19,381 nucleotides of DNA, taken from a virus. Lineage: Duplodnaviria > Heunggongvirae > Uroviricota > Caudoviricetes. The position numbers and the translations under genes were made by a program. The notes under the pieces are model-generated. The model searched no databases. It had not been told where the DNA came from and saw only the letters and a list, made by a program, of their open reading frames with translations. This document shows, in pieces, positions 1 through 18,157 of this stretch (its first letter is position 1; the number at the start of each line of letters is the position of its first letter). The stretch spans positions 1 to 19,381 of the IMG/VR virus record IMGVR_UViG_2861069343_000003. The stretch is one strand, 5' to 3'.

Positions 1-552
1 ATGCATGACAATATTTGGTTTACATATAAAGCACGTATCCAAGCGCACCATCGACTAGAATGGCTTGAAAAACACTCTCAATTTATCCTCGTTTGGTATG
101 CTATATTGAGTGCGGTACTTTCAATTGTAACGTTGCGATTTCCAAAGGTTCTAGGAGATAATACAGATATCGTTGCGGCGATACTTTCAGTGGCTCTACT
201 GGGTATTTCTCTGATCGTATCTAACCTAGATTTTCGTGGTCGAGCAATAGCTATGAGAAGGAATTATATTGCACTACAGCGACTCTATTTTGACATTACC
301 ACCAGTCAACAGTTATCTCTTGAACAGAAAGAAAAATATTTTAATTTGCTCAATGAGGTTGAGAATCACCGTGACATAGATGATAAAATTTCAAGGGTAA
401 CTCAAGTTGGACTTAAGACGAGGATCCCCACACAAAAAGAAAAAATAATTGTTATTTTATGGATATTACTTCGAATATTTATTACTGCCGCACTTTATAT
501 ACTCCCATTAATATATCTTTGGATTGACTATGACTGCAAGCAGAATTTTTAA
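1..552 (+). CDS. Small multi-pass membrane protein (183 aa), possibly SLATT-like; candidate effector partner of the downstream reverse transcriptase
   Basis: ORF starts at the first base of the window, so the true start may lie upstream. Three hydrophobic helices by eye (FILVWYAILSAVLSIVTL, IVAAILSVALLGISLIVSNL, IIVILWILLRIFITAALYILPLIYLWI) flank a charged helical segment. The 3' end overlaps the RT start by about 25 nt in another frame, suggesting translational coupling. AT-rich. Confidence 0.6.
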   Translation: MHDNIWFTYKARIQAHHRLEWLEKHSQFILVWYAILSAVLSIVTLRFPKVLGDNTDIVAAILSVALLGISLIVSNLDFRGRAIAMRRNYIALQRLYFDITTSQQLSLEQKEKYFNLLNEVENHRDIDDKISRVTQVGLKTRIPTQKEKIIVILWILLRIFITAALYILPLIYLWIDYDCKQNF

Positions 553-1900
553 AAAGTCATTCTCGAAAAAAAACCTTCTAAAAGTATACTCTGAAAAAAT
601 CAAAGAATCAGGAGCGATTGGCATAGATCGGATTCGCCCATCAAAACTTGATTTGACAATAAAAAATGAGATCACTTTCATTTTTGAAAAGGTTAATTCT
701 GGCAATTACAAATTTACAGCATATAAAGAAAAATTAATATCTAAAGGCGCTAACTCTACACCCAGACAGATTTCCATACCAACTGCTAGGGACAGAATTA
801 CTCTTAGAGCTCTCTGTGAATGCCTTACGGAAATATATCCTAAGTCCAGATTAAAACTACCACATACAGTAATTGACTCATTGAAAGAAGCATTAAACAA
901 CAGTCTATATGCTGAATATGCAAAAATAGATCTTAAAAGTTTCTATCCTTCAATTGAACATAAATTGATAATTAATGCAATAAAAAATAAAATTAGAAAA
1001 AAAGAAATTAGACAGTTAATAACATCATCATTAATCGTGCCTACTGTAAGTGGAACCACAGGAAGCAAAGGTATCCCTAATAATACCAGAGGAGTACCTC
1101 AGGGATTAGCGATATCAAACATTTTAGCTGAAATATCACTATCTAATTTCGATGATGAAATCAATAAAATGCATGACATATGGTACATGCGATACGTTGA
1201 TGACATTCTTATTTTAACACCAAAATATCAAGCAACAAAAATAGCTTCTCATATCATTGATAAGCTTCAATCATTAAATTTAAACCCACATCCATTAAAT
1301 GAAGAGAACTCAAAATCCAAAGTAGGCAGTTTGGATGAAAGTTTTAACTTTTTGGGATACCACATAGAAAATCGAGAATTATTGATAAAACATGAGAGCA
1401 TTCTTAGATTTGAGTCATCCTTAGCAAAAATTTTTACTGCATATAGGCACGCTCTACTACAAGCTAAAAGTAAGCGTGATAAAGAACGAGCTGTTGCATA
1501 TTGTCAGTGGAAACTAAATCTCAGAATTACGGGATGTGTGTTTGAAGGTAAACGATTGGGATGGGTATCGTACTTCTCACAAATAACCTCAACAGCTCAA
1601 CTTCGCTCTGTTAATCATACTATCAATAATCTTATCCGCCGATTCGGCCTTTCATCAGAAATAAAACCAAAATCTTTGATTAAAACTTTCTATGAACTCC
1701 GCAGAGGTAGAGCGGAGACTTTTAAATACATACCTAACTTTGACAATCTACATATATCTCAGAAACGAGAACTTGTTTCTATGTGGATAGGTAAAGAGAA
1801 GGAAAAAAAACTTAGCAATAGTGAAATAGAGAGGAAGTTTAAATTTAAAATTGCGAAATCAGTAAAAGAGCTTGAAGAGGATATTTCAGGAATATCATAG
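524..1900 (+). CDS. Reverse transcriptase, 458 aa (defence-type RT: retron, UG/Abi or DRT-like; subfamily not assignable by eye)
   Basis: RT motifs are visible in the translation: IPTARDRITLRAL (motif 1/2), KIDLKSFYPSIEHKLI (motif A), GVPQGLAISNILAEISL (motif B'), YMRYVDDILIL (YxDD catalytic motif C), FLGYHIEN (motif E). A helical C-terminal extension of about 160 aa follows. Position 524 is a TTG; ATG at 530 is the more likely start. Confidence 0.88.
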   Translation: MTMTASRIFKKSFSKKNLLKVYSEKIKESGAIGIDRIRPSKLDLTIKNEITFIFEKVNSGNYKFTAYKEKLISKGANSTPRQISIPTARDRITLRALCECLTEIYPKSRLKLPHTVIDSLKEALNNSLYAEYAKIDLKSFYPSIEHKLIINAIKNKIRKKEIRQLITSSLIVPTVSGTTGSKGIPNNTRGVPQGLAISNILAEISLSNFDDEINKMHDIWYMRYVDDILILTPKYQATKIASHIIDKLQSLNLNPHPLNEENSKSKVGSLDESFNFLGYHIENRELLIKHESILRFESSLAKIFTAYRHALLQAKSKRDKERAVAYCQWKLNLRITGCVFEGKRLGWVSYFSQITSTAQLRSVNHTINNLIRRFGLSSEIKPKSLIKTFYELRRGRAETFKYIPNFDNLHISQKRELVSMWIGKEKEKKLSNSEIERKFKFKIAKSVKELEEDISGIS

Positions 1901-1963
1901 ATATGTAATCCATTAAGTCATTAAAATATATCGCAATAAACACACTATTTAAACTCACAAACC

Positions 1964-2005
1964 AGCCGCAGTATCCTGCCATGGCAAGTTGCTGCGGCTT
2001 TTTAT
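1964..2005 (+). terminator. Rho-independent terminator downstream of the RT (possibly bidirectional)
   Basis: Perfect 8-bp GC-rich stem AGCCGCAG (1964-1971) pairs with CTGCGGCT (1992-1999). The loop contains the palindrome TGCCATGGCA. The stem is followed by TTTTTAT on the plus strand. This coincides with the composition change from AT-rich cassette to about 50% GC. Confidence 0.55.
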
Positions 2006-2007
2006 GT

Positions 2008-2295
2008 TCAACGGATCAACAGCCAGATCAGAAGACACGCTACCATCGGCACAGCAAAATCCATCAGGCTTGCCACATCCCATGCGCGTGGATCAAAACC
2101 GCCCCACCACGGCATGTTAATCCGCTTGCCATGCCCGAACATTTCAATCCAGCGATATTATGCTTGGGTGTGTTCGCCCGCAATGAAGAACGTACAACTG
2201 GCTATCGCTCCGTAAACCCAGTTTCCGGTAAAAAGCCCCACCAGTATCTGCGCAGCCACAGCACAAAGTGCATGAAGGAAAGGTGTTATACCCAT
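2008..2295 (-). pseudogene. Small hydrophobic ORF interrupted by an in-frame TAA (45 codons, stop, 5 codons, 44 codons); possible disrupted small membrane-protein gene or two micro-ORFs
   Basis: Hand translation of the minus strand gives MGITPFLHALCAVAAQILVGLFTGNWVYGAIASCTFFIAGEHTQA, a stop at 2158-2160, then in the same frame YRWIE-MFGHGKRINMPWWGGFDPRAWDVASLMDFAVPMVACLLIWLLIR. An AGGA Shine-Dalgarno lies 6-8 nt upstream of the ATG at 2293-2295. Below the 60-aa threshold of the ORF track. Confidence 0.25.
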
Positions 2296-2308
2296 TTTCA
2301 TCCTACCC

Positions 2309-2331
2309 AATAAAACGGGGCGCACAGCCCC
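2309..2331 (-). terminator. Putative intrinsic terminator immediately after stf
   Basis: On the minus strand, 6 nt after the stf stop codon: GGGGC, loop UGUGC, GCCCC, followed by GUUUUAUU. Confidence 0.4.
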
Positions 2332-2337
2332 TTAATA

Positions 2338-5300
2338 TTATTTAGAGGCAAGCGCCGCCTCAATTGCAGATAATCTTTGTTTTAATTCTGCGTTTTCTTC
2401 TTCCAGCGAGGTAACGCGATCATCTGTTTCACGGGCGACCTGAACAAGTAAACCCGTCACGGCGGCGTAGTCAACATTAAGATAGCGCGTTTCTTCGCGT
2501 AGCTCGTTGCCGTCAACGGTCGGGCCTTGCAACTCTTCACCGTAATGGATGAATGAACCAACGGCCTCCGGGATGGCCTCTTCAACTTCCTGGGCTATAA
2601 CCCCGGCGCAATGTGCCCCATTCTCCTTGAGCGTGTACGTGTATCCATTAATTTTGCGGATTGCGTCAGTCGCGTTATCGATAATCTCGATATTTTCTTT
2701 CAGTCTGCGGTCTGATGACTGATTCAGTGTGGTGCAGTTAACACTTCCGTTTACAGTAAGGTTTTGCCCGTCTGTTGTTTTTTGCGCATAAAACAGATAC
2801 GCAGCAGACGTGCCAACCTCAAAAACGTTTTGTCGAGTACTGGAACCCCACACCCTGATACTAACTGGTAGTTCTGAATTACCTGAATTAAGTAAAGCAA
2901 AACGATTGCCAGTCCCTGTTTGTTTTCTAATTACTAAATCGGCAGTTGAGTTAACCTCATCTTTGTTGATGGTTAGCGCCTGTGCTGTAGCACCGTTGAC
3001 AGTACCGCTTAGTAGTTGCACCGCGCCATCATCGCCATTTAACAGCACTTGAGCGCTGCTTCTGTGGTTTTTAAGGCACAACATTTTTCCCGTGTTTTTC
3101 GATGTACCTACTGACCACGCCGAATTGGTTCCAGTGCTATCAACACCGCGCACAGCACAATTCATACTACTGTAATCTGACGTACTCCCCAGCACATCAA
3201 CACGCCCGCCGCCTAATTTTGATGGAGTCGTCGAGGTTAACGACCTGACGGTTACATCCTGATTCCATCCTGAAACAACTACCTGACTCCACTCCGTCCA
3301 ACTTCCATTGACAACAAAGCGAACGTATATGCGTTTTGTGTCGCTGCCAATCAGCGTTTGCATGATCGCATAATCTGAACCCGTAGTTTTACGAGTAGAT
3401 TCTACACGTAGCAAAAAGTTACCGCTTACGCCGTCAGGCTTATTGGTAATATATGCACCACCTGCGACAGTTTTGCATTGATAGTATTTAACAGATCCAG
3501 CCACTGTATTAGCAATGATCAAGTCGTTTAAATCAATAGTCTTGTTGTCAATGGTTTCCGGCTCGATAGATCCCGCCATACCTGCGTTAAATGTGGCAAG
3601 GTCAGAAAAGGTTGTTTTACCGCCTACCGTCACCCCGCTATCGAGTTTTGCTTGTGTGATTACTTTGCTGTTTTTTGTGTGGTCAGAATAACTACCAAAA
3701 TACAAATCACCGTCACCAGCTATACCCAGGTATTTTTGATCAACATCATCAACCTTAAACCCAATGGACAAGTTTTTAATTGTGTTGTTGCTCGTTAAAA
3801 CCAAAGGCGTATGCTGAGATCCTTTGATGCTTACCGTAGTGTTATCGGAACTGGTGCTTGTGTTTGCAAATTCTGCGGTGGCTGCGCTGATTTTGTAAGT
3901 TATTTTTAGATTGCGGGCCTCAACCCTCCCGTCGTGGCGAACAATAAAATCACCACTTGATTCACCTTTTGTGTTTTTCGCCCTGATGTGGATTTCGCCA
4001 AGTGATTCGTTGTTTTCAGGCGACCAAACAACGCCGCGCTCGCTTCCGTCGTTGTTCATGAACCACAGATGAGCGGTTCCTTTTGCTGATTTTAGCCTGA
4101 TAGATGGCGTTTCTTTCAATATATCAAGATCACCAGACATAACATCGCCGGATTTTTTCACCTGCGCATCGTTCGTTACGTTGCCAAGTCCAACATCCGA
4201 TTTCGACGGCTTGTTTGCCGAGCCGTATAGCTCATTGACGCTAAAAGTCCCGTTGTTAAGCCGGGCATCGTTGCCGGCATAGATCTTAATCTTCGCGGTT
4301 GAGTAGTCGATATTGATCGCTGACCACGTATCGCCGCACCGCGAGAATATACCAGAACCGTGGCTATAAATGGTCGCCGTGCTTCCGGTCGGCCTATCAC
4401 CGCGCCAGAAATGACCACCTTTGTCACGCAGAGCTTTTAAGATCTCTACATCGCTCATCTTGCCGTTTGTTGATATCCCGCTACCGCCAAGACCGAAAGC
4501 GCCTGTAAGCATAGCATTAGAAAGACCCAAATCTGCTTTAGTCGGCTTGTTTAACTGGTCGTAAATCCTTACAACGGGGCTTTCAACATATCCAGAAGGC
4601 GCGGCGGTTTGCTTAACAAATCCGTCTGGAATGTATAATTCCGGGCGTGCCGTCTGCGCCAGTACCGCAACCTTTGCGCCGTTGATAAATGCGCGCTGGA
4701 AGGCCCAAACCTCAATAAAGCCGTCACCTTTAACCAGGCCGTAACGCATCTGGTTGTTATCGGTCAGCCCGGTTGACCCTAAGCGGCGTATACTCAGATG
4801 ACGAGAAACATTATCCGCACTAAGCAAAGAAGGCAGACCGCGCGCCGAGATCTCGATAAAGTCAATGTTTCCGTAAGGGGAGCCGTAGTTACCAGCGTTA
4901 GTAACCATTAGCGTTACATGGCAATTGCCGCTTCCGGGATCGGAAAGTTTCGCGATCTTTATGTAAAAAGACTCATTACCAGTAACAACGGGCCAATCGT
5001 ATTGCGTCATCGGGCTGACGAGTCCCCCGACCTTGTCGAGATATTCTTTCGCCTTGTTCTCTGACGCTTTAGCGTTGGTTTCGCTGACCTTTGCTGCTGC
5101 CTCACTATTTTTCGCGTTGGTTTCTGATTTTTTGGCTGCTGTCGCGGAGTTTGCCGATGCAGTTTGTGAGTCTGCTGCCGCCTGTGCGCTGTTATCCGCA
5201 TTCGTCTCAGACGTTTTTGCGGCCTTCGCGGAATTTCCTGCTGCCGTTGCCGAGGAAGCTGCACTGCCGGCGCTCGAGGCAGCGCTCGTTTCTGATGATT

Positions 5301-6039
5301 TTGCCGCCACTTTTGAAGCCGACGCATCCCGGGCTGAGGTGGCAGCTTCTGACGCTTTCGTGGTCGCGGTGGATGCAGAAGTGGCCGCAGATTTTTGTGA
5401 TGCTGCGGCATTCGTTTCTGACGTTTTCGCTGCACCGGCACTGGTGGCTGCCGCGCTTTTTGAAGACTCTGCAGCGGCAGCACTTTTTGATGCTTCAGTA
5501 GCCTTTGTTGATGCCGTTCCTGCGCTGGAAGACGCTGACTGAGCCGACGACGCGGCCTGTCCGGCTGACGTGCTGGCTGCGCGTGCGGAGTCCGCAGCAT
5601 CAGTCGCATGGGTTGCCGCCTCACGGGCTGATGTGCGGGCATCACTGGCTGACTTCTTCGCGGCTGCCGTGTTCTGTGCTACTGCGGACGCGTTACGCGC
5701 CACCTCTTCCACCATCAGTTCAAAGCGGCGCAGTGCCTCCGGACGGACATCATCCTCCGTCATGGCACCGAGAAAATCATTCAGCGTACCCGGTTGTGAG
5801 TCTTCATACACGGTGATGGTCCCGGCATGCGATGGCGGGAAGCCTTCCACCAACAGAATAACGCTGTACTGACCGTACTCAACGTCCATGCTGTAACGCC
5901 CGGCTTCATCCGGGTTTTCTGAGGCCACTGTGTTCACCACCACCGTGGTGCTGTTGCGCCTGGCCTTTAGCTGAATGGTGCAGTTTTGTATCGGCTTACC
6001 TGCGCCATCTTTCAGTACACCTGAAATCCGTACTGCCAT
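2338..6039 (-). CDS. stf: Side tail fibre protein (lambda Stf-like, 1233 aa) with Ala/Ser-rich repeat shaft and C-terminal intramolecular chaperone domain
   Basis: N-terminus MAVRISGVLKDGAGKPIQNCTIQLKARRNSTTVVVNTV...YSMDVEYGQYSVIL matches remembered lambda Stf almost residue for residue. The C-terminus carries SDRRLKENIE...NVDYAAVTGLLVQVARE...LEEENAELKQRL, typical of the self-cleaving tail-fibre/endosialidase chaperone domain. Confidence 0.9.
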   Translation of the reverse strand: MAVRISGVLKDGAGKPIQNCTIQLKARRNSTTVVVNTVASENPDEAGRYSMDVEYGQYSVILLVEGFPPSHAGTITVYEDSQPGTLNDFLGAMTEDDVRPEALRRFELMVEEVARNASAVAQNTAAAKKSASDARTSAREAATHATDAADSARAASTSAGQAASSAQSASSSAGTASTKATEASKSAAAAESSKSAAATSAGAAKTSETNAAASQKSAATSASTATTKASEAATSARDASASKVAAKSSETSAASSAGSAASSATAAGNSAKAAKTSETNADNSAQAAADSQTASANSATAAKKSETNAKNSEAAAKVSETNAKASENKAKEYLDKVGGLVSPMTQYDWPVVTGNESFYIKIAKLSDPGSGNCHVTLMVTNAGNYGSPYGNIDFIEISARGLPSLLSADNVSRHLSIRRLGSTGLTDNNQMRYGLVKGDGFIEVWAFQRAFINGAKVAVLAQTARPELYIPDGFVKQTAAPSGYVESPVVRIYDQLNKPTKADLGLSNAMLTGAFGLGGSGISTNGKMSDVEILKALRDKGGHFWRGDRPTGSTATIYSHGSGIFSRCGDTWSAINIDYSTAKIKIYAGNDARLNNGTFSVNELYGSANKPSKSDVGLGNVTNDAQVKKSGDVMSGDLDILKETPSIRLKSAKGTAHLWFMNNDGSERGVVWSPENNESLGEIHIRAKNTKGESSGDFIVRHDGRVEARNLKITYKISAATAEFANTSTSSDNTTVSIKGSQHTPLVLTSNNTIKNLSIGFKVDDVDQKYLGIAGDGDLYFGSYSDHTKNSKVITQAKLDSGVTVGGKTTFSDLATFNAGMAGSIEPETIDNKTIDLNDLIIANTVAGSVKYYQCKTVAGGAYITNKPDGVSGNFLLRVESTRKTTGSDYAIMQTLIGSDTKRIYVRFVVNGSWTEWSQVVVSGWNQDVTVRSLTSTTPSKLGGGRVDVLGSTSDYSSMNCAVRGVDSTGTNSAWSVGTSKNTGKMLCLKNHRSSAQVLLNGDDGAVQLLSGTVNGATAQALTINKDEVNSTADLVIRKQTGTGNRFALLNSGNSELPVSIRVWGSSTRQNVFEVGTSAAYLFYAQKTTDGQNLTVNGSVNCTTLNQSSDRRLKENIEIIDNATDAIRKINGYTYTLKENGAHCAGVIAQEVEEAIPEAVGSFIHYGEELQGPTVDGNELREETRYLNVDYAAVTGLLVQVARETDDRVTSLEEENAELKQRLSAIEAALASK
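5035..5700 (-). repeat. Low-complexity Ala/Ser/Thr-rich repeat region inside stf (iterated KTSETNA / SAAxSA units)
   Basis: Stf residues about 115-335 are runs of A, S, T, K and E with reiterated KTSETNA(x)NS motifs. The region is GC-rich and repetitive and generates five spurious overlapping ORFs on both strands in the track (5007-5872). Confidence 0.6.
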
Positions 6040-6050
6040 ATTCCCCCCAC

Positions 6051-6075
6051 AAAAAAACCCGCCTGAACCGGCGGG
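6051..6075 (-). terminator. Rho-independent terminator between lom and stf
   Basis: Minus strand: CCCGCC (6070-6075) pairs with GGCGGG (6058-6063) with a 6-nt loop, followed by a run of seven U (plus-strand AAAAAAA at 6051-6057), directly upstream of the stf ribosome-binding site. Confidence 0.5.
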
Positions 6076-6103
6076 CTGTCATAACACTGTGTTACCTGGC
6101 TAA

Positions 6104-6703
6104 TCAGAATTTATAACCGACACCCACGATGAAACCGTCAGTGCGCCAGTCACCACTGCCGGAACCTTCATAAGCAATATCAATGGCCACGGATTCGGTC
6201 GGGTTAAACTGCACGCCAGCCCCCCACGCCAGAGACGTGTTGCTGTGGCGACCGTCATCACTTCCGGTCAGCACATCGTGCGTTTTCCCCTTGTTGTCAG
6301 TTACGCGGAGATAATCCCCGGAGAAAGTCGACACACGGCTGTAAGCCACACCCGCCATCGCATACGCGCTGAACCATTCATTCACGCGCACAGACGGCCC
6401 CGCCATCACGCTGAACCAGCGGTTACGCACGGAATCCTCATGCCAGCGGGTATCGCTGTAATGCGTTTTTTGCTCATCTTCAGCGTTGGCATAACTGAAT
6501 GACGTAATCAGCCCCAGCGTGTCCGTAAACTCATAACGGTATTTCACGTTAATCCCGTTCAGATTATCGCTGCCGGGAGCGTTCGTACGGGCATGAAGAT
6601 ACCCTGCGCTCAGTGTGGCCTGCTGCTCAGACGCCCATGCAGGCGCACCGGATACGGCCAGACAGATGGCTGCGGACAAAATGGCTGCACAAACTTTACG
6701 CAT
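6104..6703 (-). CDS. lom: Lom outer-membrane protein (Ail/Lom/PagC family beta-barrel), 199 aa
   Basis: Signal peptide MRKVCAAILSAAICLAVSGAPAWA, then GINVKYRYEFTD...SVMAGP...AYAMAGVAYSR and a C-terminus DIAYEGSGSGDWRTDGFIVGVGYKF that matches remembered lambda Lom. Sits in the lambda position between J and stf. Confidence 0.9.
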   Translation of the reverse strand: MRKVCAAILSAAICLAVSGAPAWASEQQATLSAGYLHARTNAPGSDNLNGINVKYRYEFTDTLGLITSFSYANAEDEQKTHYSDTRWHEDSVRNRWFSVMAGPSVRVNEWFSAYAMAGVAYSRVSTFSGDYLRVTDNKGKTHDVLTGSDDGRHSNTSLAWGAGVQFNPTESVAIDIAYEGSGSGDWRTDGFIVGVGYKF

Positions 6704-6726
6704 AATTACCTCTCGCTTTTCTGCAA

Positions 6727-6751
6727 TAAAAAAGGCGCCAGAAATGGCGCC
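6727..6751 (-). terminator. Rho-independent terminator between J and lom
   Basis: Stem GGCGCCA (6734-6740) pairs with TGGCGCC (6745-6751) around a GAAA loop; on the minus strand it is followed by UUUUUUAUU (plus-strand TAAAAAA at 6727-6733). Confidence 0.5.
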
Positions 6752-6771
6752 CGCATATGGGTTATGAAAAT

Positions 6772-9700
6772 TCAGCTAATCGTGATACCTGCTGTGGATT
6801 TCTTCATCACCACAACCAGCAAATCACTGATACTGGCTGTGGGATACCAGTCATTTACCAGCCACGCTGATACCGAAAACTCCAGCGTCATGTGACCGCG
6901 ACCAGCAGGCATATCAATAACACCTGTATAAACCAGCGTATTATCCAGCGCGGTACGGTTATAAATTTCAGCACCGTTTTTCTTCACTATCAGGCGGCAT
7001 GACGAATAAATATCGTTATTCTCCCGCTCATGTTTAGCGCCACGAAACGCCACCGCGGGAATAACAATCTGCCGGTCAAACGGCTGATCGTCATAAACCC
7101 TGACGGTAATGGTCCCTGATGGCCACCGCTCCGGTGCACGGGAGTCCCGGGGGAAAGCTTTGCCCACTGTTTTAACGAGATCGCCTTCAATCTGGTTCGC
7201 AGACAGTTTTCCCAGAACCCGACAGTTTTCATTTATCGTGACATTGTTGAGCGTCCCGGCGTTCGCATTCACACTGCCACTGATATCCGCATTTTTCGCC
7301 GTCAGTCGCCCGTCCGGTGTAAGGGAAAATACCGGAGGATTACCGCCGCTGGTAATGGTGGGAGCCGTCAGATATTTCAGGAACACTTCGTTCATGAATA
7401 TCTGATCGCCCTGACCAACAAACATCGGCTTTGTGTTGCCATTCGCAGGATTAATCATCGCAATCCTGTCTGCCGCCAGCAGCACCTGACTCTGCATGCC
7501 GTCAGGGGTGTTCTCAATACCGGCACCAATACCCGCGATATAAAGGCGTCCGTCCTGCATCTGCTGCAGCTTCACAGCCCACATGCTGTTCAGGTTATTA
7601 TTTGTATCAACCTGAACCTTCTGTATCTGCTGAATTGCCGCACTCTGGTCTTCCAGTTTCTTATTGACGGTCTGTGTGATTTCATTGCTGACATCCGTAA
7701 TGGATGTCCTGATTTCAGCCAGGTCAGGCGCAAGCTGACCGTTATCAATCTGCGTCCACAGCTCCTGAGCCAGATGGGTTTTCCCTATCTCGCCTTTGAA
7801 AAAATCCAGATAGCCGGATGCGTCATCACTCGGCTGACCAACAGCCTCCACGAATGCCGATTTGCCAACGGTGTTCACACTGCGAACGTAAAAATAATAA
7901 TTATGGCCCGGTTTGATATTGATACTGGCGGCTATCCAGTACAACGCCGTACCAAGATAGCGTGCTGTGGTTTCAACCTGCCTGATATCCGCAATCCGCT
8001 TTTCCGAGAACCAGAACTCAAACTGTACCGTCGGATCATAAACCGCAAGATGCGGCGTGGCGGTTATCTGAAAATAGCCCGGCGTCAGCTCAATCCGCGA
8101 CGGCGCTGCCGGTGCGGCAATCCGGAACGATACCGACGCCGGATCGCCCTGCTGCCCCCACGCATTTACTGCCCGGACTGTCAGCCTGTAGTTCCCCAGA
8201 GCCAGTTGTGTGAAGCGGTAAGTGGTTTCCGTCGTCCGGGCCGTGCTGACCAGCCGCTCACTGCCGTCATCCGCTGCCACGGTCAGGCGAAGCAGGAAGC
8301 TCACGCCCTTCACCACCTTCGGCGTGTCCCAGCGGGCCAGCACCTGGTATTCCCCGCTGTCTGCGGTGACTTCTGCGGTCAGATGCTGCACTGCTGGCGG
8401 CGTGACACCATTCACCGTGCCGCTCTGGTCGCCGTCAAAGTGCGCCCCGTTATCCACGATGGCCTCTTTTTCCGGTACATGCTGCACGGCAGTGATGGCA
8501 TACGTGCCGTCATCGTTCTCACGGATACTCACGCAGCGGAACAGGCGCTGGCGCAGCGTCGGCAGCTTCAGCCCCCACACGCTGTACTCGGCAACGCCGT
8601 CAGGAAGCCGGCTCACTTTCACCTTCACGCCGTCGGTGATGGACTGGACCTCCACGCTGACCGGATTGCCACTTCCGTCAACCAGGCTTATCAGCGTGGT
8701 ACCGGAGGATGGCAGCGTGATTTCACGGTCGAGCGTCAGCGTCCGGGTCTGGCTGTTCACCGCCAGCACGCGCCCGCCGGTGCTGATACCGGCATAGTCA
8801 TCATCGCAGATTTCAATGACATCGCCCGGTACATGGCGAAGCCCTTCAGCACCCACGCTGAAGTCCACGGTCTGCGTTTCCAGCAGCTCCGTTTTAATCA
8901 GCCACAGCCCGGCGCGGTGCGCCTGCCCCCGACTGGTACAGCCAAACGCATCCATCTTCGTGACGTTACGACCATAACGGGCAATGGCCTGCGAGTCCTC
9001 CACAAGCTCTGTTGCCGTCTCCCAGCCGTTATCCGGGTCAATCCAGTTCACTTCAACGGCATTATGGCGGTCTTTCAGGGCGCTGAAGCTGTAGCGGAAT
9101 GGTGCGCCATCATCCGGCATCACCACATTACTGCGGTTATAGGTCCACACCTTATCCGATGGTCGGTCCTGCACGAACGTCAGCGTCTGCCCGTTCCATA
9201 CCGGCATACAGCGCATCGCCGAGCAGAAATCACTGAGCACATCCCACGCCTTACGTTGTGTGGTCAGGTAAGCGTTACAGGTGATGCGCGGCTCCGTACC
9301 GCCAAAGCCGTCCGGCACCGACTGGTCGCAATTCTGGCCGATGACATACAGCGCCCATTTGTCCACATCCGCCGCACCGAGACGTTTCCCCATGCCGTAG
9401 CGCGGGTGGGTCAGCATATCCCACAGACACCAGGCCATGTTGTTGCTGTATGACGGTTTAAACGTCCCGTCCCAGATACCGCTGTATTGCCGCGTCTGCG
9501 GGTTATAATTCGACGGCACCTGCAGAATACGCCCGCGAAGATGATAATTACGGCTCACCTGCTGGCTGCCGAACTGCTCCGAATCCACCTGTACGCCGAC
9601 CAGTGCCGTGTTCGGGTAGCACTGTTTCACATCGATGATTTCGGTGTATGACGACCAGAGCGTTTTGTTCTGCAGCTGGTCTGTGGTGCTGTCCGGCGTC

Positions 9701-10251
9701 ATCCTGCGCATCCGGATGTTGAACGGGCGCGGCGGCAGATTATCCACCACTACCGAGGCCAGATACTGCGAGGTGGTTTTGCCCTTAATGGTGATGTCTT
9801 TTTCCGTCACCCAGCCACCGTTACGCTGTATCTGAACCAGCAGGCGGACTTCCGACGGATTCCGGTCCCCCTTTGAAGTGGTTTCCACCAGTGCCTGCAC
9901 ACCGAAGGTAAAGCGCAGACGGTCAATGTTTGCCGACGTGATGGTCCGGGTGATCGGCGTGTCGTATTTCACTTCCGTGCCCAGTACCGTCTCGGAACCT
10001 GATGATTCAAATCCCTCCGGCGGTGTCTGTTCCTGCTCACCTGCCCGGAACACCACCGTGACACCGGAGATGTTAGTATTCCCCTCACTGTCCAGCACCG
10101 GTGTACTGTTCAGCAGCACGCTTTTTAATCCATCCACCGGACCTTCAACCGGCCCTTCGCTGATGGCATCGATCACACTCAGCAACTGCGTGGACTTCAG
10201 GTTGTCCTTTGCTTCGCGCGGGGTATGCCCCTTACTGCTGCCTTTACCCAT
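6772..10251 (-). CDS. J: Tail tip attachment / host-specificity protein J (1159 aa)
   Basis: N-terminus [34 protein letters not shown] and long stretches throughout match remembered lambda J. The last 150-250 aa diverge from lambda J. Confidence 0.92.
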
Positions 10252-10311
10252 TCCTCACGCCCCATAAACGATAAAACCGCCCGGAGGCGGTTTCACATAA
10301 AACGTTTTTCA

Positions 10312-10953
10312 TCAGCGACCAATCACCACAACCTGACCACCGTCCCCTTCGTCTGCCGTGCTGATCTCCTGAGAAACCACGCGTGATCCCACGCGCATTT
10401 CACCGTACAGAACGGGCAGAACATTGCCCTGGGCAACCATATTATCCAGTGAAGAAAAATAGGTGTTCTGTTTGCCGTTATCCGTTGTCTGTGTGCGGGG
10501 GGTTTTGGGTTTAGGGGCCAGCATCTGTGCAACACCGCCAAGCGTCATACTGGCACCGAGAGAAAACAGCAGATTACTCGCCATAATTCCTACCCCCGGC
10601 ATCCATATAGCAACCGCCATAACAGCCGCCCCCAGCACAGCCTGAAACACACCGCCACTTTTGGCTCCTGCCAGACGCGGCACGATATGGATCACAGCAC
10701 CATTTGCCAGCGGTTCATTAAGACGGGCTGATAATTCCGTTTCACCTGTATCACGCCCGGCAATGCGTACCTGATACCAGCCGTCGCTCAGCTTCTGACG
10801 AAACGCCGGGAGCTGTGTGGCCAGTGCCCGGATGGCTTCAGCCCCCGTTTTCACACGCAGATCGATGCGGCGGCCAAATCGTTGTAAATCCCCGTAAAGG
10901 CAGATGCGCGCCATGCCCGGTGACGCCAGAGGGAGTGTGTGCGTCGCTGCCAT
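10312..10953 (-). CDS. I: Tail tip assembly protein I (213 aa)
   Basis: MAATHTLPLASPGMARICLYGDLQRFGRRIDLRVKTGAEAIRALATQLPAFRQKLSDGWYQVRIAGRD... and C-terminus ...YGEMRVGSRVVSQEISTADEGDGGQVVVIGR match lambda gpI. There is a hydrophobic central segment. Confidence 0.85.
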   Translation of the reverse strand: MAATHTLPLASPGMARICLYGDLQRFGRRIDLRVKTGAEAIRALATQLPAFRQKLSDGWYQVRIAGRDTGETELSARLNEPLANGAVIHIVPRLAGAKSGGVFQAVLGAAVMAVAIWMPGVGIMASNLLFSLGASMTLGGVAQMLAPKPKTPRTQTTDNGKQNTYFSSLDNMVAQGNVLPVLYGEMRVGSRVVSQEISTADEGDGGQVVVIGR

Positions 10954-11594
10954 TTGTCGGTATACCTCTCTCGTTTGCTCAGTTGTTCAGGAATATGGTG
11001 CAGCAGCTCGCCGTCGCCGCAGTAAATTGCGGCGTGATTCGGCACCGATGAACCAAAACAGCACAGCAGCACATCGCCCGGCTGTGCCGCTGACAACGGC
11101 ACCTGATACAGCCCCGTCGCCTCCAGATTATCCAGATAGAGATTCTGGCCGTTACGCCACCAGTCATCCTCACGATGAAAGTCCGGCATCTCAATCCCCG
11201 CCAGATGATAAGCATCCCGGAACAGTGTGTAACAGTCCGTCACACCGTGCTCAAAGCGCCGCCCGGTGAGATGCGGCACACAGCGGAACTTATGAATCGT
11301 CCCCCGGCAGACCAGCCACCACGGCAAATCACTCTGCACCTGCAGCCGCCGGTCGGCCTCACTCAGCCAGGGCAGACCACCGGGGTGGCTGTGGACCAGC
11401 GCCACAATCTCACCCTGCATTTCTGCCTGCAGCCAGTCTTCCGGCGACATACGGAAATACGCCTCCGGCTCACCGGAGATATTCACGCAGGGGAAATATC
11501 TTTCCCCCTCCGGCGTGCTTACCACGAAGCCGCACGACTCCGCTGGCGCACATCGCCGGGCGTGCGCCAGAATCGCTGATTCTGTCTGTGTCAT
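10851..11594 (-). CDS. K: Tail tip assembly protein K (MPN/JAMM plus NlpC/P60 domains); ORF is 247 aa and runs 103 nt into I
   Basis: MTQTESAILAHARRCAPAESCGFVV...ALVHSHPGG (JAMM-type HxH) ...GVTDCYTLFRDAYH...NHAAIY (NlpC/P60 Cys and His) match lambda gpK. The last 48 residues are Arg-rich (RERYTDKWQRRTHSLWRHRAWRASA) and overlap I in another frame. Confidence 0.85.
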   Translation of the reverse strand: MTQTESAILAHARRCAPAESCGFVVSTPEGERYFPCVNISGEPEAYFRMSPEDWLQAEMQGEIVALVHSHPGGLPWLSEADRRLQVQSDLPWWLVCRGTIHKFRCVPHLTGRRFEHGVTDCYTLFRDAYHLAGIEMPDFHREDDWWRNGQNLYLDNLEATGLYQVPLSAAQPGDVLLCCFGSSVPNHAAIYCGDGELLHHIPEQLSKRERYTDKWQRRTHSLWRHRAWRASAFTGIYNDLAAASICV

Positions 11595-11599
11595 GGGAT

Positions 11600-12088
11600 T
11601 TACTGCGAAAGTTTGTTAATGGAAAGGAAGCCGCCAAAGTTGCCGACGTTATTGCGGAACTTACAACCGCTCAGGCATTTGCTGCATTTATCCTTCGTGA
11701 TATCGGACGTTGGCTGGTCATATTCATCCGCGACAGCCGGACCGCTATAACCGCACTCGTCACCGCGATAGGTCCAGGTGCAGGTGTTGGCCAGCATGAT
11801 ACGTCCCGGAAAAACAGCGCCATCCGTTTCCGTCGGCGTGGACAGTACAAAGGAGGCACTCACCGCGCTCAGTTCGCTGCACTGCTCAATGCGCCAGCGG
11901 CTGATCACCTCCTGCTCCGGATCGGCATAACTGTTTCCGTTGACGAAGTTCACCGCATCCAGAAAACGGGCGTAAACATTACGCCGGACCACCGTTCCGC
12001 CGACCAGACTCTGCATATCTTCCGCCATCCCGGTGACCATACCGTACAGGTTAGAAACCGTCAGCGTGGGGCGCGTACCGCTCTTTTT
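11600..12088 (-). pseudogene. L: 5'-truncated tail tip protein L (C-terminal 146-160 aa only; N-terminal 70-85 aa missing)
   Basis: The ORF translation MVTGMAEDMQSLVGGTVVRR...CSKCLSGCKFRNNVGNFGGFLSINKLSQ matches the C-terminal two-thirds of lambda gpL. Reading the same frame upstream gives KKSGTRPTLTVSNLYG (lambda: GKGTSTRPTLTVSNLYG), then unrelated sequence and a stop at 12107-12109. Confidence 0.75.
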
Positions 12089-12207
12089 ACAAAACAGAGA
12101 AGAGCATCACCGGACGACGGGCTCATAACCCAATCCATCCGGGCGGCAGTCACCGCAGGTGTTCTTCTCTGTTTTGTGGAGAAACCAACCGACCTTGCAG
12201 GGTCGAT

Positions 12208-12588
12208 ATGATGGGGAGCAGCAAAATGGCTAGCGAACGCAGTACTGATGTGCAGGCATTTATCGGGGAGCTGGACGGCGGCGTATTTGAAACCAAAATC
12301 GGCGCAGTTCTCAGTGAAGTCGCTTCCGGTGTGATGAACACGAAAACCAAAGGTAAGGTCTCGCTCAACCTGGAAATCGAACCGTTTGATGAGAACCGTG
12401 TGAAAATCAAACACAAACTCTCATATGTTCGCCCGACTAACCGCGGGAAAATTTCCGAAGAAGACACCACCGAAACGCCGATGTATGTCAATCGCGGTGG
12501 TCGCCTGACTATTCTGCAGGAAGACCAGGGACAATTACTGACTCTTGCCGGTGAACCTGACGGAAAACTCCGCGCAGCAGGTCATTAA
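12208..12588 (+). CDS. yfdP: YfdP-like hypothetical protein (CPS-53/KplE1-type prophage gene)
   Basis: ORF of 126 aa (MMGSSKMASERSTDVQAFIGELDGG...). Starting at the third Met (12226) gives 120 aa, the length I recall for K-12 YfdP. It lies immediately upstream of the yfdQ/R/S/T-like genes in the same order as in K-12. Assignment is from memory. Confidence 0.55.
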   Translation: MMGSSKMASERSTDVQAFIGELDGGVFETKIGAVLSEVASGVMNTKTKGKVSLNLEIEPFDENRVKIKHKLSYVRPTNRGKISEEDTTETPMYVNRGGRLTILQEDQGQLLTLAGEPDGKLRAAGH

Positions 12589-12653
12589 TATCGTTCTTAA
12601 TTAACTGATTATTTATCTCATCACTGAATATCTTTATATAGTGAGGACTTATT

Positions 12654-13478
12654 ATGTCTCAGAACTTAGACGCAACCGCAATTAATCAAATCCATGCCCT
12701 TATTTCTGCTCAGGGTGTTAATGAAATTATCAGTAAAATTGGTGCCGATGCTGTGGCATTGCCTGAGAATTTCCGCATTCATGATCTGGAAAAATTTAAT
12801 TTAAATCGCTTCCGTTTCCGTGGTGCGCTTTCCACTGCCAGCATCGATGACTTTACCCGTTATTCTAAAGATCTTGCAGATGAAGGCACCCGCTGCTTTA
12901 TCGATGCTGATAATATGCGAGCCGTCAGTGTGCTTAACCTGGGTACTATTGATGAACCAGGTCACGCAGATAACACCGCCACTCTCAAACTGAAAAAGAC
13001 AGCACCGTTCTCTGCCCTGTTGTCTGTTAACGGCGAGCGTAACTCCCAGAAGTCACTGGCAGAATGGATTGAAGACTGGGCCGACTACCTTGTGGGCTTT
13101 GATGCTAATGGTGACGCCATTCAGGCAACAAAAGCGGCTGCGGCGGTCCGTAAAATCACGATTGAAGCAAACCAGACCGCTGATTTTGAAGACAATGACT
13201 TCAGCGGCAAACGCTCTCTGATGGAGTCTGTCGAAGCGAAAACCAAAGACATTATGCCAGTAGCATTTGAGTTTAAATGCGTTCCATTTGAAGGCCTGAA
13301 AGAACGTCCGTTTAAATTACGCCTCAGCATTATCACTGGTGATCGCCCTGTACTGGTTCTGCGCATTATTCAGCTGGAAGCAGTACAGGAAGAAATGGCT
13401 AACGAATTTCGTGATCTGCTTGTTGAAAAATTCAAAGACAGCAAAGTAGAAACCTTTATTGGTACTTTCACCGCCTGA
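12654..13478 (+). CDS. yfdQ: YfdQ-like protein (DUF2303-type prophage protein), 274 aa
   Basis: ORF of 274 aa with an AGGA ribosome-binding site 7 nt upstream of the ATG. Length and position match K-12 YfdQ as I recall it. Confidence 0.7.
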
Positions 13479-13490
13479 TTTCATTACTGC

Positions 13491-13512
13491 AAATGCCCCT
13501 GCGGGGGCATTT
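13491..13512 (+). terminator. Hairpin downstream of yfdQ (putative terminator or attenuator)
   Basis: AAATGCCCC, loop TGCG, GGGGCATTT: a perfect 9-bp stem beginning 13 nt after the yfdQ stop codon. Confidence 0.4.
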
Positions 13513-13536
13513 ATGGAAACGTAATTAACTCAATAA

Positions 13537-13561
13537 TCGCCTGATGGCGAGGGTTTTCTTT
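13537..13561 (+). terminator. Second hairpin with U-rich tail downstream of yfdQ
   Basis: TCGCC, loop TGAT, GGCGA, followed by GGGTTTTCTTT. Confidence 0.4.
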
Positions 13562-13605
13562 AACCAAAATTCAGCGCGGTGCAGCGCATATACGTGGAGA
13601 ACAAA

Positions 13606-14142
13606 ATGTCATTTATTAAAACTTTTTCCGGGAAGCATTTTTATTATGACAGGATAAATAAAGACGACATCGATATTAACGATATCGCGGTTTCCCTTTC
13701 AAATATCTGTCGCTTTGCCGGTCATCTTTCGCACTTCTACAGCGTCGCCCAACATGCGGTTCTTTGCAGCCAGCTGGTGCCGCAGGAATTTGCTTTTGAA
13801 GCGTTAATGCATGATGCAACAGAAGCGTATTGCCAGGACATTCCCGCACCACTGAAACGCCTTCTTCCTGACTATAAACGGATGGAAGAAAAAATAGACG
13901 CCGTAATCCGTGAGAAATACGGGTTACCCCCGGTTATGAGCACGCCAGTGAAATATGCCGATCTCATCATGCTGGCAACCGAACGCCGCGATCTCGGACT
14001 TGATGATGGCTCTTTCTGGCCTGTACTGGAAGGTATCCCGGCAACAGAGATGTTCAAAGTGATTCCACTGGCTCCAGGCCATGCCTACGGGATGTTTATG
14101 GAACGTTTTAACGAGTTATCGGAGTTACGCAAATGCGCATGA
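13606..14142 (+). CDS. yfdR: HD-domain phosphohydrolase, YfdR-like (178 aa from the ATG)
   Basis: HD-domain signature: H in SVAQHAVLCSQL and HD in EALMHDATEAYCQD. The track ORF starts at a GTG at 13579, but the ATG at 13606 has a GGAGAA ribosome-binding site 7 nt upstream and gives 178 aa, the K-12 YfdR length as recalled. Confidence 0.75.
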   Translation: MSFIKTFSGKHFYYDRINKDDIDINDIAVSLSNICRFAGHLSHFYSVAQHAVLCSQLVPQEFAFEALMHDATEAYCQDIPAPLKRLLPDYKRMEEKIDAVIREKYGLPPVMSTPVKYADLIMLATERRDLGLDDGSFWPVLEGIPATEMFKVIPLAPGHAYGMFMERFNELSELRKCA

Positions 14143-14495
14143 ATGTTTTCGAAATGGAAGGGTTTCTTCGCGGGAAATGTGTACCGCGAGATCTGAAAGT
14201 GAACGAAACAAATGCTGAGTACCTGGTACGTAAATTCGATGCGCTTGAAGCTAAATGTGCGGCACTGGAAAACAAAATAATACCAGTGTCAGCTGAACTA
14301 CCACCAGCAAATGAAAGTGTTCTGTTATTTGATGCTAACGGAGAAGGCTGGCTGATTGGCTGGCGTTCTCTCTGGTACACCTGGGGACAAAAAGAAACCG
14401 GAGAATGGCAGTGGACATTTCAGGTCGGGGACATTGAAAGCGTCAATATCACTCACTGGGCAGTAATGCCAAAAGCACCGGAGGCTGGAGCATAA
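14133..14495 (+). CDS. yfdS: YfdS-like prophage protein (120 aa)
   Basis: ORF of 120 aa overlapping the yfdR stop by 10 nt. Its stop overlaps the next start as TAATG. Length and order match K-12 YfdS. Confidence 0.65.
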   Translation: MRMNVFEMEGFLRGKCVPRDLKVNETNAEYLVRKFDALEAKCAALENKIIPVSAELPPANESVLLFDANGEGWLIGWRSLWYTWGQKETGEWQWTFQVGDIESVNITHWAVMPKAPEAGA

Positions 14496-15115
14496 TGACC
14501 ACATTTACCGATAAAGAACTGATTAAAGAAATCAAAGAGCGTATCAGCAGCCTGGAGGTTCGAGACGATATTGAGCGCCGTGCTTATGAAATTGCTCTGG
14601 CATCGCTGGAAGAGGAGCCGGTGGCATGGCTACATTCAGACAATGGCTTAGGTATTCCAGCAATAACCAGGAGTAAAAACATTGCTGACAGTTGGTTATC
14701 AAAGGGCTGGTATGTTCAGCCGCTATATATAGCCAAGCCAGTGCCGGTGGTGCCAGATGCTCGTCCGACTTTAAATAATGGCATAGTCGGTTTTGATGAA
14801 GGCTGGAACGCCTGCCGCACCACCATGCTTCACGGTGTCAAACCTGTAAGCCAGACTTACAAGTTGAACAAGCTGTCTGACAACTCTCCGGTAACTCCGG
14901 ATGGTTGGATAAGCTGTAGTGAGCGAATGCCGAACGATAAACAATATGTTTGGTGTTGGGGTAAGTCTTACGGCTGGACTGAGTGCGATACCTTCGAAGG
15001 GTATTACGATTGTTCGAGAAACAAATGGTGGGCAGTTACTGACGATGGGGAAGAACCGGCATTGAAAGTAACCCACTGGATGCCGCTACCGGAGCCACCG
15101 CAGGAGGTGAAGTAA
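14495..15115 (+). CDS. yfdT: YfdT-like protein with C-terminal DUF551-type domain (206 aa)
   Basis: C-terminus WISCSERMPNDKQYVWCWGKSYGWTECDTFEGYYD...KVTHWMPLPEPP resembles DUF551. Start and stop are both coupled to neighbours through TAATG overlaps. The K-12 copy is shorter as I recall. Confidence 0.6.
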   Translation: MTTFTDKELIKEIKERISSLEVRDDIERRAYEIALASLEEEPVAWLHSDNGLGIPAITRSKNIADSWLSKGWYVQPLYIAKPVPVVPDARPTLNNGIVGFDEGWNACRTTMLHGVKPVSQTYKLNKLSDNSPVTPDGWISCSERMPNDKQYVWCWGKSYGWTECDTFEGYYDCSRNKWWAVTDDGEEPALKVTHWMPLPEPPQEVK

Positions 15116-15309
15116 TGAACAACTTAATGACAACTAAACAAGTCGCCGACTTCTGTGGCGTTTCAGTATCGACAGTTCTTCGCTGGAACAGCGTAAACAG
15201 GAGAACTGGCCAGAAATATAGGCCTGACTTTCCAGATCCTGATATTAAATCCTGCCCCAATAAATGGGCATCACACAAGATATACAGGTTTGCGGGAGTT
15301 ATTGAGTAA
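15115..15309 (+). CDS. AlpA/Xis-family helix-turn-helix protein (putative excisionase or regulator), 64 aa
   Basis: HTH segment TTKQVADFCGVSVSTVLRW is typical of AlpA/phage-excisionase HTH proteins. It is the last gene of the plus-strand operon and converges on the integrase-side cargo gene. Confidence 0.65.
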   Translation: MNNLMTTKQVADFCGVSVSTVLRWNSVNRRTGQKYRPDFPDPDIKSCPNKWASHKIYRFAGVIE

Positions 15310-15322
15310 TACGTATTAGTTC

Positions 15323-15387
15323 AGATGTGAGCTAACACATCTATGGCACAGAGCTAAACCTAATCTGACTGTCTACTCTGTGCCATA
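15323..15387. repeat. Two adjacent inverted repeats (hairpins) in the convergent intergenic region between the AlpA-like gene and the 870-aa cargo gene
   Basis: AGATGTG (15323-15329) pairs with CACATCT (15336-15342) around a 6-nt loop. TATGGCACAGAG (15342-15353) pairs with CTCTGTGCCATA (15376-15387), a perfect 12-bp stem with a 22-nt loop. Neither has a clean U-tract. They lie exactly at the composition change into the AT-rich cassette. Confidence 0.4.
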
Positions 15388-15442
15388 AGTGGATGTTAAT
15401 TACTTCTTGGTATTTTAATGGTTGGATAGCTTATCAAGATTA

Positions 15443-18055: not shown

Positions 18056-18081
18056 CTCGTGTATTATTCGATAAAGATCAC

Positions 18082-18110
18082 ATTGTACGTGATATCAACT
18101 ACTTGCTCAA
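18082..18110 (-). promoter_or_regulatory. Putative sigma70 promoter for the 870-aa gene
   Basis: On the minus strand: -35 TTGAGC (plus-strand 18105-18110), a 17-nt spacer, and -10 TACAAT (plus-strand 18082-18087). This is in the 102-bp gap between the integrase stop and the cargo gene start. Confidence 0.4.
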
Positions 18111-18157
18111 AGCAGATCGTCATATCCTATTGCGTTCTAGCTACGTAAACTATCCTA

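Follow-up and report, generated by a model that had tools for sequence, protein, structure and literature searches.

The locus at the start of IMG/VR record IMGVR_UViG_2861069343_000003 (positions 1 to 19,381, analysed here at full length and referred to as the window; Caudoviricetes) raises the question of what kind of reverse transcriptase (RT) is encoded there next to a small membrane protein, and whether these two genes amount to a complete system. An original prediction, made from the letters of the window, had read the pair as a prophage-borne defence cassette, either a retron with a membrane effector or a UG/Abi/DRT-type RT with a SLATT-like partner. The window was found to be identical to positions 839347–858727 of the Escherichia coli AR437 genome (NZ_CP029108.1), corresponding to positions 20001–39381 of locus L001, in which sites upstream of the window are numbered here. 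With high confidence, the cassette is a DRT10 (UG17) defence-associated RT system, a natural allele of Eco3DRT10 that a decayed E. coli lambdoid prophage carries as an accessory module at its tail-fibre end. The system is already known, having been named DRT10 by Tang et al. (bioRxiv October 2025, 10.1101/2025.10.16.682844; PMC12632851), and the present copy, which is almost the very locus characterised, adds no new principle.

Profile searches identified both proteins. The RT matched the PADLOC model RT_UG17 over its full length (profile positions 1–429 of 429; E 1.2e-158, 526 bits), the runner-up PADLOC models being Drt3a (127 bits, E 2.6e-37), UG4 (98 bits) and Drt9 (E 7e-20). The membrane protein matched PADLOC RTasSLATT (E 1.3e-56), Pfam SLATT_5 (E 1.8e-28, 99.7 bits, cut-off 29.5) and NCBIfam SLATT_5 (136 bits, cut-off 60), with the last of these alignments beginning at residue 1. 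The RT was classified as UG17 and its partner as SLATT_5, which bears out the second of the two architectures predicted. The further features of DRT10/UG17 were also found, namely a SLATT_5 gene that adjoins and overlaps that of the UG17-clade RT, a structured non-coding RNA (ncRNA) upstream of SLATT, an A-B-A' loop 3' of a stable stem-loop, and a YVDD motif together with a C-terminal serine. DRT3 and DRT2 were considered and rejected; the NCBIfam models Drt3a and Drt2 scored 112.6 against a cut-off of 200 and 76 against a cut-off of 390, respectively, and the cassette contains a single RT gene, whereas DRT3 needs a second RT (UG8).

The gene for the SLATT_5 membrane effector occupies positions 1–552 of the plus strand and encodes 183 amino acids (aa) with three hydrophobic segments at approximately aa 25–52, 54–79 and 146–177 (Kyte–Doolittle), the number that had been noticed by eye. 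In AR437 an in-frame TAA is located 15 nt upstream of the ATG, so that the open reading frame (ORF) is complete and is not the end of a larger upstream gene, an outcome that would have counted against the prediction. The UG17/DRT10 RT gene follows on the same strand at positions 530–1900, encoding 456 aa from the ATG at 530. An alternative TTG at 524 would give 458 aa, but is probably not the true start; the RT of Eco3DRT10 (OKX54664) had likewise been annotated with two extra N-terminal residues, an error that Tang et al. put right, the S458 of the record being the real S456 (PMC12632851). The two genes overlap by 23 nt, from the RT start at 530 to the SLATT stop codon TAA at 550–552; the predicted overlap of the genes held, and that of the stop and start codons did not.

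Pfam RVT_1 aligned with aa 74–281 of the RT, leaving a C-terminal extension of approximately 175 aa past the polymerase core, slightly longer than the 160 aa estimated earlier. The catalytic YVDD motif was read from the sequence at positions 1193–1204 (aa 222–225, plus strand); the original prediction had also named this motif. The last residue is a serine, S456 (codon 1895–1897, plus strand), which is predicted to be the protein-priming residue by analogy with Eco3DRT10. Ratios of non-synonymous to synonymous substitution rates (dN/dS) were 0.11–0.16 for the RT against other alleles and 0.08–0.29 across the SLATT and RT genes, both of which are under purifying selection.

On the right, the cassette is bounded by a terminator-like hairpin on the plus strand (positions 1964–2004), with a stem of AGCCGCAG.../...CUGCGGCU making up the hairpin proper at 1964–1999, followed by TTTTT. 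It was found by folding, as a simple scanner missed it owing to its long loop. The hairpin coincides with a jump in GC content from 33.8% (window 1–1998) to 53.8% (1999–12000), in agreement with the strong terminator that had been proposed at the change in composition; the GC content of the first 2 kb ranges between 31 and 37% and is approximately 50% beyond. In the copy from E. coli ST131 (L002 11215–11230, compared with window 1990–2005) homology stops at the hairpin, and since ATATCAC stands in place of the T-run present in AR437 and in strain CE10, that copy has the stem without a canonical U-tract.

The third component of the system is located outside the window, the edge of which, position 1, is the start of the SLATT ATG. 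The earlier remark that an upstream ncRNA would be cut off by this boundary proved to be right. In AR437, the 222 nt upstream of SLATT contain a promoter-like site, a sequence able to fold as RNA, and a U-run with the SLATT ribosome-binding site. The promoter-like site, TTGACT-N18-AATAAT, is at L001 19810–19839 (plus strand), and a 137-nt ncRNA occupies L001 19846–19982 on the same strand, reaching from 155 to 19 nt ahead of the first position of the window. The fold consists of a basal stem (GGGGCAGG/CCUGCCCC) bearing four small stem-loops and an open loop. Its minimum free energy (MFE) was -57.2 kcal/mol (z = -4.6), and none of 200 shuffled sequences folded as well. Weak MFE pairs into the template loop (nt 38–44 with 110–116) were dropped because the published structure leaves this loop open. 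To number the RNA, the Eco3 template was recovered from the published 9-nt motif; the CE10 copy carries CAAUGAUUC followed by CAAU, and alignment with CE10 set the register. The register relative to the Eco3DRT10 ncRNA numbering was exact, with U110, C116, A117 and U119 all in place in the CE10 copy.

Conservation of the ncRNA was assessed with a covariance model built from three E. coli copies and restricted to the five robust helices, using a stricter threshold that excludes weak self-matches on the reverse strand. The sample searched comprised IMG/VR prophage-derived contigs and genomes encoding RT relatives at 58–100% identity, from the genera Escherichia, Xenorhabdus, Photorhabdus, Buttiauxella, Pseudomonas and Stutzerimonas. 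At each of the 26 loci (E 1e-15 to 1e-37) the ncRNA was detected directly upstream of SLATT and on the correct strand, and the unit conserved across genera is ncRNA-SLATT-RT. Among 25 distinct sequences, standard pairs filled 96.8% of cells, compared with 47–56% when the partners were slid by 1–3 columns. Compensatory changes on both sides were present in 19 of 37 pairs, and every one of the five helices included such pairs; these counts are biased towards the model, to which the alignment was itself fitted, although the slid controls and the compensatory pairs remain clear. The loop after stem-loop 5 (SL5) starts with GUUCAA in all 25 sequences and has a second (U)CAA 9–10 nt downstream, with variable bases between them. 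Judged from the sequences, this conserved CAA...CAA loop is the A-B-A' rule. Between alleles whose synonymous divergence (dS) is 0.15, the ncRNA is 97.8% identical. A search of Rfam 15 at permissive thresholds (E ≤ 1) over L001 19300–22400 (3.1 kb) returned only a chance miRNA match (E 0.3), without a match to a retron, a group II intron or any further family; Rfam 15 has no entry for the DRT10 ncRNA.

The edge of the window is an instance of a wider effect, as DRT10 is systematically truncated by prophage-boundary calling. The IMG/VR contigs L013, L019 and L033 start at the SLATT ATG, and L012, L017 and L018 at the RT ATG; because they are cut at these gene starts, they are devoid of the ncRNA and some of them also of SLATT. 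Prophage or 'island' sequences trimmed to a gene start are missing the essential ncRNA, and automated DRT10 calls made from such contigs are consequently incomplete.

UG17 was placed among the class 2 UG/Abi RTs by Mestre et al. (2022), who noted its strong association with SLATT and predicted a role in defence; they also cited work in which sbcB had become essential in some E. coli strains through a locus of UG17 and SLATT (PMC9226505). Tang et al. reported that three E. coli homologs, Eco1DRT10 to Eco3DRT10, protect against BASEL phages, and that the RT active site, SLATT and the ncRNA upstream of SLATT are all needed for defence (PMC12632851). In Eco3DRT10 the RT binds a 137-nt ncRNA and primes from its C-terminal S456; defence is abolished by the change of YVDD to YVAA, and both cDNA synthesis and defence by S456A (PMC12632851). 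Single-stranded DNA of kilobase length is produced, in which the 9-nt unit GAATCATTG is repeated in tandem. Addition of the repeats, which is telomerase-like, depends on an A-B-A' arrangement in the template loop that immediately follows stem-loop 5 on its 3' side (PMC12632851). Sanchez-Nieto et al. (bioRxiv April 2026, 10.64898/2026.04.29.721553) distinguished three subtypes of UG17 and reported repeats of 7 nt and an ncRNA that is transcribed independently. For a different Escherichia homolog, they found that SbcB suppresses toxicity and that a phage protein resembling single-stranded DNA-binding protein (SSB) is needed for activation (10.64898/2026.04.29.721553).

Of these systems, that of E. 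coli 703491, Eco3DRT10, is closest to the window. The two share the ncRNA-SLATT-RT operon with overlapping genes, the YVDD motif, an RT of 456 aa ending in S456, the A' segment CAAU, and a 137-nt ncRNA with identical helices. Over the 397 residues of the Eco3DRT10 RT listed in Table S1 of Tang et al. (OKX54664), five differ from the window RT (98.7% identity), and the SLATT proteins differ at 4 of 183 residues (97.8% identity). The difference lies in the template, as Eco3DRT10 makes the repeat GAATCATTG with 4 nt of identity between A and A', whereas the window allele is predicted to make GAACCGTTG with 3 nt and a wobble. The copy in CE10 (RefSeq) carries the exact Eco3 template. The UG17-A system of Escherichia sp. 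E3659 (10.64898/2026.04.29.721553) is of the same family, with SLATT followed by the RT and an independently transcribed ncRNA upstream; its cDNA consists of tandem repeats, and defence depends on each of the three parts. It belongs to another lineage, however, with an RT of approximately 445 aa, an ncRNA of 143 nt with six stem-loops and a repeat of 7 nt, and it is for this system, not for the Eco3 lineage, that control by SbcB and the SSB-like phage trigger were demonstrated.

The template loop of the window allele reads CAAC-GGUUC-CAAU (nt 107–119) and is located directly after SL5 (nt 87–103); that of Eco3 reads CAAU-GAUUC-CAAU, two substitutions away, giving 9-nt templates of CAACGGUUC and CAAUGAUUC, respectively. 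Because the loop has this sequence, copying from nt 115 to nt 107 is predicted to yield a tandem cDNA repeat 5'-GAACCGTTG-3', the 3' end of which, GTTG, could realign on CAAU through three Watson–Crick pairs and a dG:rU wobble. The cassette is present in 188 of 5,426 complete E. coli genomes, at 190 places; exact-word searches found the window template in 154 genomes (156 places) and the Eco3 template in 34, and together they accounted for every copy. The laboratory-tested allele is the minority template variant in E. coli, and the majority variant, which predicts a different repeat, makes it possible to test the published A-B-A' rule on natural variation.

By this reading the complete unit would comprise the 137-nt ncRNA with its own promoter outside the window, SLATT (1–552) and the RT (530–1900). 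By analogy with Eco3DRT10, the RT would bind the ncRNA, prime DNA synthesis from the hydroxyl of its own C-terminal S456 and copy the 9-nt template that comes directly after stem-loop 5 in the 3' direction. The nascent DNA would then dissociate and realign on the short repeat of the template start (A-B-A'), and the cycle would be repeated as in telomerase, giving kilobase-long single-stranded tandem repeats that presumably remain attached to the RT. The cDNA may be made constitutively and restrained by the host exonuclease I (SbcB), with phage infection perturbing its amount or form, in one homolog by means of a phage SSB-like protein. SLATT is then thought to permeabilise the membrane and abort infection; that the cDNA controls SLATT is what we infer here. 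The two preprints propose different versions of this step. Tang et al. observed that infection lowers the cDNA and proposed that cDNA restrains SLATT (PMC12632851), whereas Sanchez-Nieto et al. observed that infection raises first-strand cDNA and proposed that its accumulation activates SLATT, at a threshold set by SbcB and the phage SSB-like protein (10.64898/2026.04.29.721553).

Two of the alternatives concern the family of the RT. In a retron, the RT would make multicopy single-stranded DNA (msDNA) from an msr/msd RNA and act with a membrane effector, and the architecture of the cassette is superficially alike, with a small RT, a transmembrane partner and an adjoining structured RNA, to which a weak match to NCBIfam retron_St85_RT can be added. 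That match, however, reached 58.7 bits against a cut-off of 235, while the UG17 model scored 526 bits; the Rfam search matched no RNA family at E ≤ 1, retron msr/msd included; and a close homolog primes from a protein serine rather than from the 2'-OH of a branching guanosine. The retron half of the original prediction was accordingly given up, and we leave it next to no chance. The same negligible standing is given to an RT of a group II intron or other mobile retroelement, the finding that had been named in advance as fatal to a defence reading. There is partial likeness to the RT/maturase model TIGR04416 (144 bits) and a faint match to GIIM (14.5 bits), but neither reaches its cut-off, of 300 and 23 bits, respectively. 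Furthermore, Rfam detected no intron RNA in the 3.1 kb around the genes, the RT has no endonuclease domain, and it is always accompanied by SLATT and the ncRNA.

Within DRT10, several observations weigh against a simple transfer of the Eco3DRT10 mechanism to the window allele. The two differ by at least five RT residues, four SLATT residues and two template nucleotides. The fourth base of A mismatches A' in the window allele (C versus U), although in Eco3 the corresponding single change at this base, U110A, was tolerated and altered the repeat (PMC12632851). The preprints conflict on whether the cDNA falls or rises upon infection, which bears on the effector-control step. The prophage hosting the cassette in AR437 is a deleted remnant, and expression in that strain is an assumption. 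Finally, the window allele offers a second possible register, GUUC-AACG-GUUC, of 8 nt, in which the template would be GUUCAACG, realignment would take place on GUUC and the repeat would be CGTTGAAC, alone or in a mixture of 8- and 9-nt repeats; the product would then be different in kind from that of Eco3DRT10. The two natural substitutions do give rise to a GUUC...GUUC repeat with all 4 nt matching, which the Eco3 allele lacks, and a cryptic realignment site makes Eco1DRT10 imprecise (PMC12632851). On the other hand, the 5' template boundary of Eco3 is C107, three nucleotides 3' of SL5, and GUU104–106 are not copied (PMC12632851), while the CAA register is kept in 25 of 25 relatives and GUUC...GUUC occurs only where the middle segment is CGGUUC. 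Since the Eco3 boundary falls on the 3' side of GUU and conservation is limited to the CAA register, we judge use of the 8-nt register to be unlikely. It is still less probable, to the point of being very unlikely, that the cassette is an intact-looking but inactive passenger of a decayed prophage, unexpressed or disabled by allele-specific substitutions. The prophage is without most of its genes and several neighbouring genes are pseudogenes, as would be expected of such a passenger, but the two ORFs retain their full length, the promoter and the ncRNA are undamaged, and the dN/dS values are those of constrained genes (0.08–0.29). The same template allele is also kept in 154 complete genomes, in prophages at different integration sites, and conservation of the ncRNA (97.8% identity) exceeds that of synonymous sites (dS 0.15).

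A DRT10 system at this locus can be set beside other RT systems. DRT9 (UG28) and DRT3 (UG3 and UG8) are likewise class 2 UG/Abi RTs that make repetitive cDNA templated by an ncRNA, and SLATT accessories occur among them; DRT9 is moreover protein-primed, with an ncRNA architecture resembling that of DRT10. Their products differ, being poly-dA in DRT9 and poly(dTdG) in DRT3, and their profiles scored far lower on the window RT. Telomerase (TERT and telomerase RNA) also copies a short internal RNA template repeatedly and has a realignment segment and a structured 5' template boundary. In DRT10, however, the primer is a serine of the RT itself instead of a chromosome end, the enzyme is far smaller (456 aa), and its role is in immunity, alongside a membrane effector. 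Retrons with transmembrane effectors are comparable as tripartite defence units of RT, ncRNA and effector that are often prophage-borne, and differ in RT clade, RNA and priming chemistry.

Directly upstream of the cassette is a gene encoding a DinI-like protein of 82 aa (L001 19466–19778; NZ_CP029108.1 838812–839124), which scored 72.5 bits with the NCBIfam DinI model, below the cut-off of 111. Its promoter region contains two sites matching CTGT-N8-ACAG, which we take to be the LexA-box consensus, and no terminator was seen between the DinI-like gene and the ncRNA promoter. With this arrangement, SOS-driven transcription from the DinI-like promoter could read through into the defence operon. 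In the E. coli lambdoid prophages examined the DinI-like gene is always directly upstream of the cassette, a linkage that is absent in more distant relatives. In the IMG/VR contig L028 (2906–4312), approximately 1.4 kb separate the DinI-like gene from the ncRNA, compared with approximately 70 nt elsewhere, which suggests an insertion. Taken jointly, the proposal that natural DRT10 alleles encode different or mixed 'telomere-like' repeats which affect the control of SLATT, and that expression of the ncRNA or the operon is coupled to SOS or prophage induction through DinI-like read-through, is rather doubtful.

The deleted lambdoid prophage of AR437 is inserted between prfC and yjjG, and the cassette is located at one of its ends. 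The DinI-like gene, ncRNA, SLATT and RT are followed on the opposite strand by genes for the tail fibre, lom, J, I, K and a truncated L, which agrees with the predicted position in a prophage just beyond a tail-fibre gene. The tail fibre gene product is a protein of 1,233 aa with phage_tail_N and Peptidase_S74 domains. Beyond the truncated L are unrelated early genes, a gene for an 869-aa HNH protein and an integrase gene. Several neighbours of the cassette are pseudogenes, and most genes of the prophage are missing. The cassette was also found at the tail-fibre end of prophages at prfC in CE10 and 01G17CRGN001 and of a prophage adjoining yecD in ST131 strain 4993. Across these contexts homology sets in at the DinI-like promoter and breaks off precisely where the hairpin finishes on its 3' side, at approximately window position 1998. 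The cassette is a discrete module of approximately 2.5 kb with sharp boundaries that is common to lambdoid prophages at different integration sites, of which there are at least two, and it is an accessory module of the kind that had been predicted. Searches of the isolated-phage collection with DNA and protein sequences identified no sequenced phage with the cassette, the sole match being a 25%-identical RT in a faecal contig; since no sequenced phage carries it, the link to phages rests on prophages and IMG/VR prophage-derived contigs.

Three other regions of the window were noted. A small ORF on the minus strand (2008–2295), between the terminator and the tail-fibre gene, is a pseudogene here, with an internal stop according to the RefSeq annotation, and is intact in CE10 (94 aa), with no Pfam match. 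At approximately 11600–12210 the prophage remnant contains a junction at which the truncated gene for minor tail protein L abuts yfdP/yfdQ/yfdR-like early genes on the other strand, indicating that the prophage either suffered an extensive deletion in its interior or is a mosaic derived from two prophages. The ORF of the 869-aa protein (15443–18055, minus strand) is located in an island of 30–35% GC (approximately 15400–18200) adjoining the integrase gene (18158–19381). The protein has a double-stranded-RNA-binding motif at aa 143–209 (Pfam dsrm, E 2.6e-10), which NCBIfam models show to be RNase III-like, and an HNH_2 nuclease domain towards the C-terminus at aa 772–821 (E 2e-13); in PADLOC it matched generic HNH models only. 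The ORF is rare, being present in 18 of the 5,426 complete E. coli genomes, and is a possible candidate for an uncharacterised single-gene defence or accessory gene.

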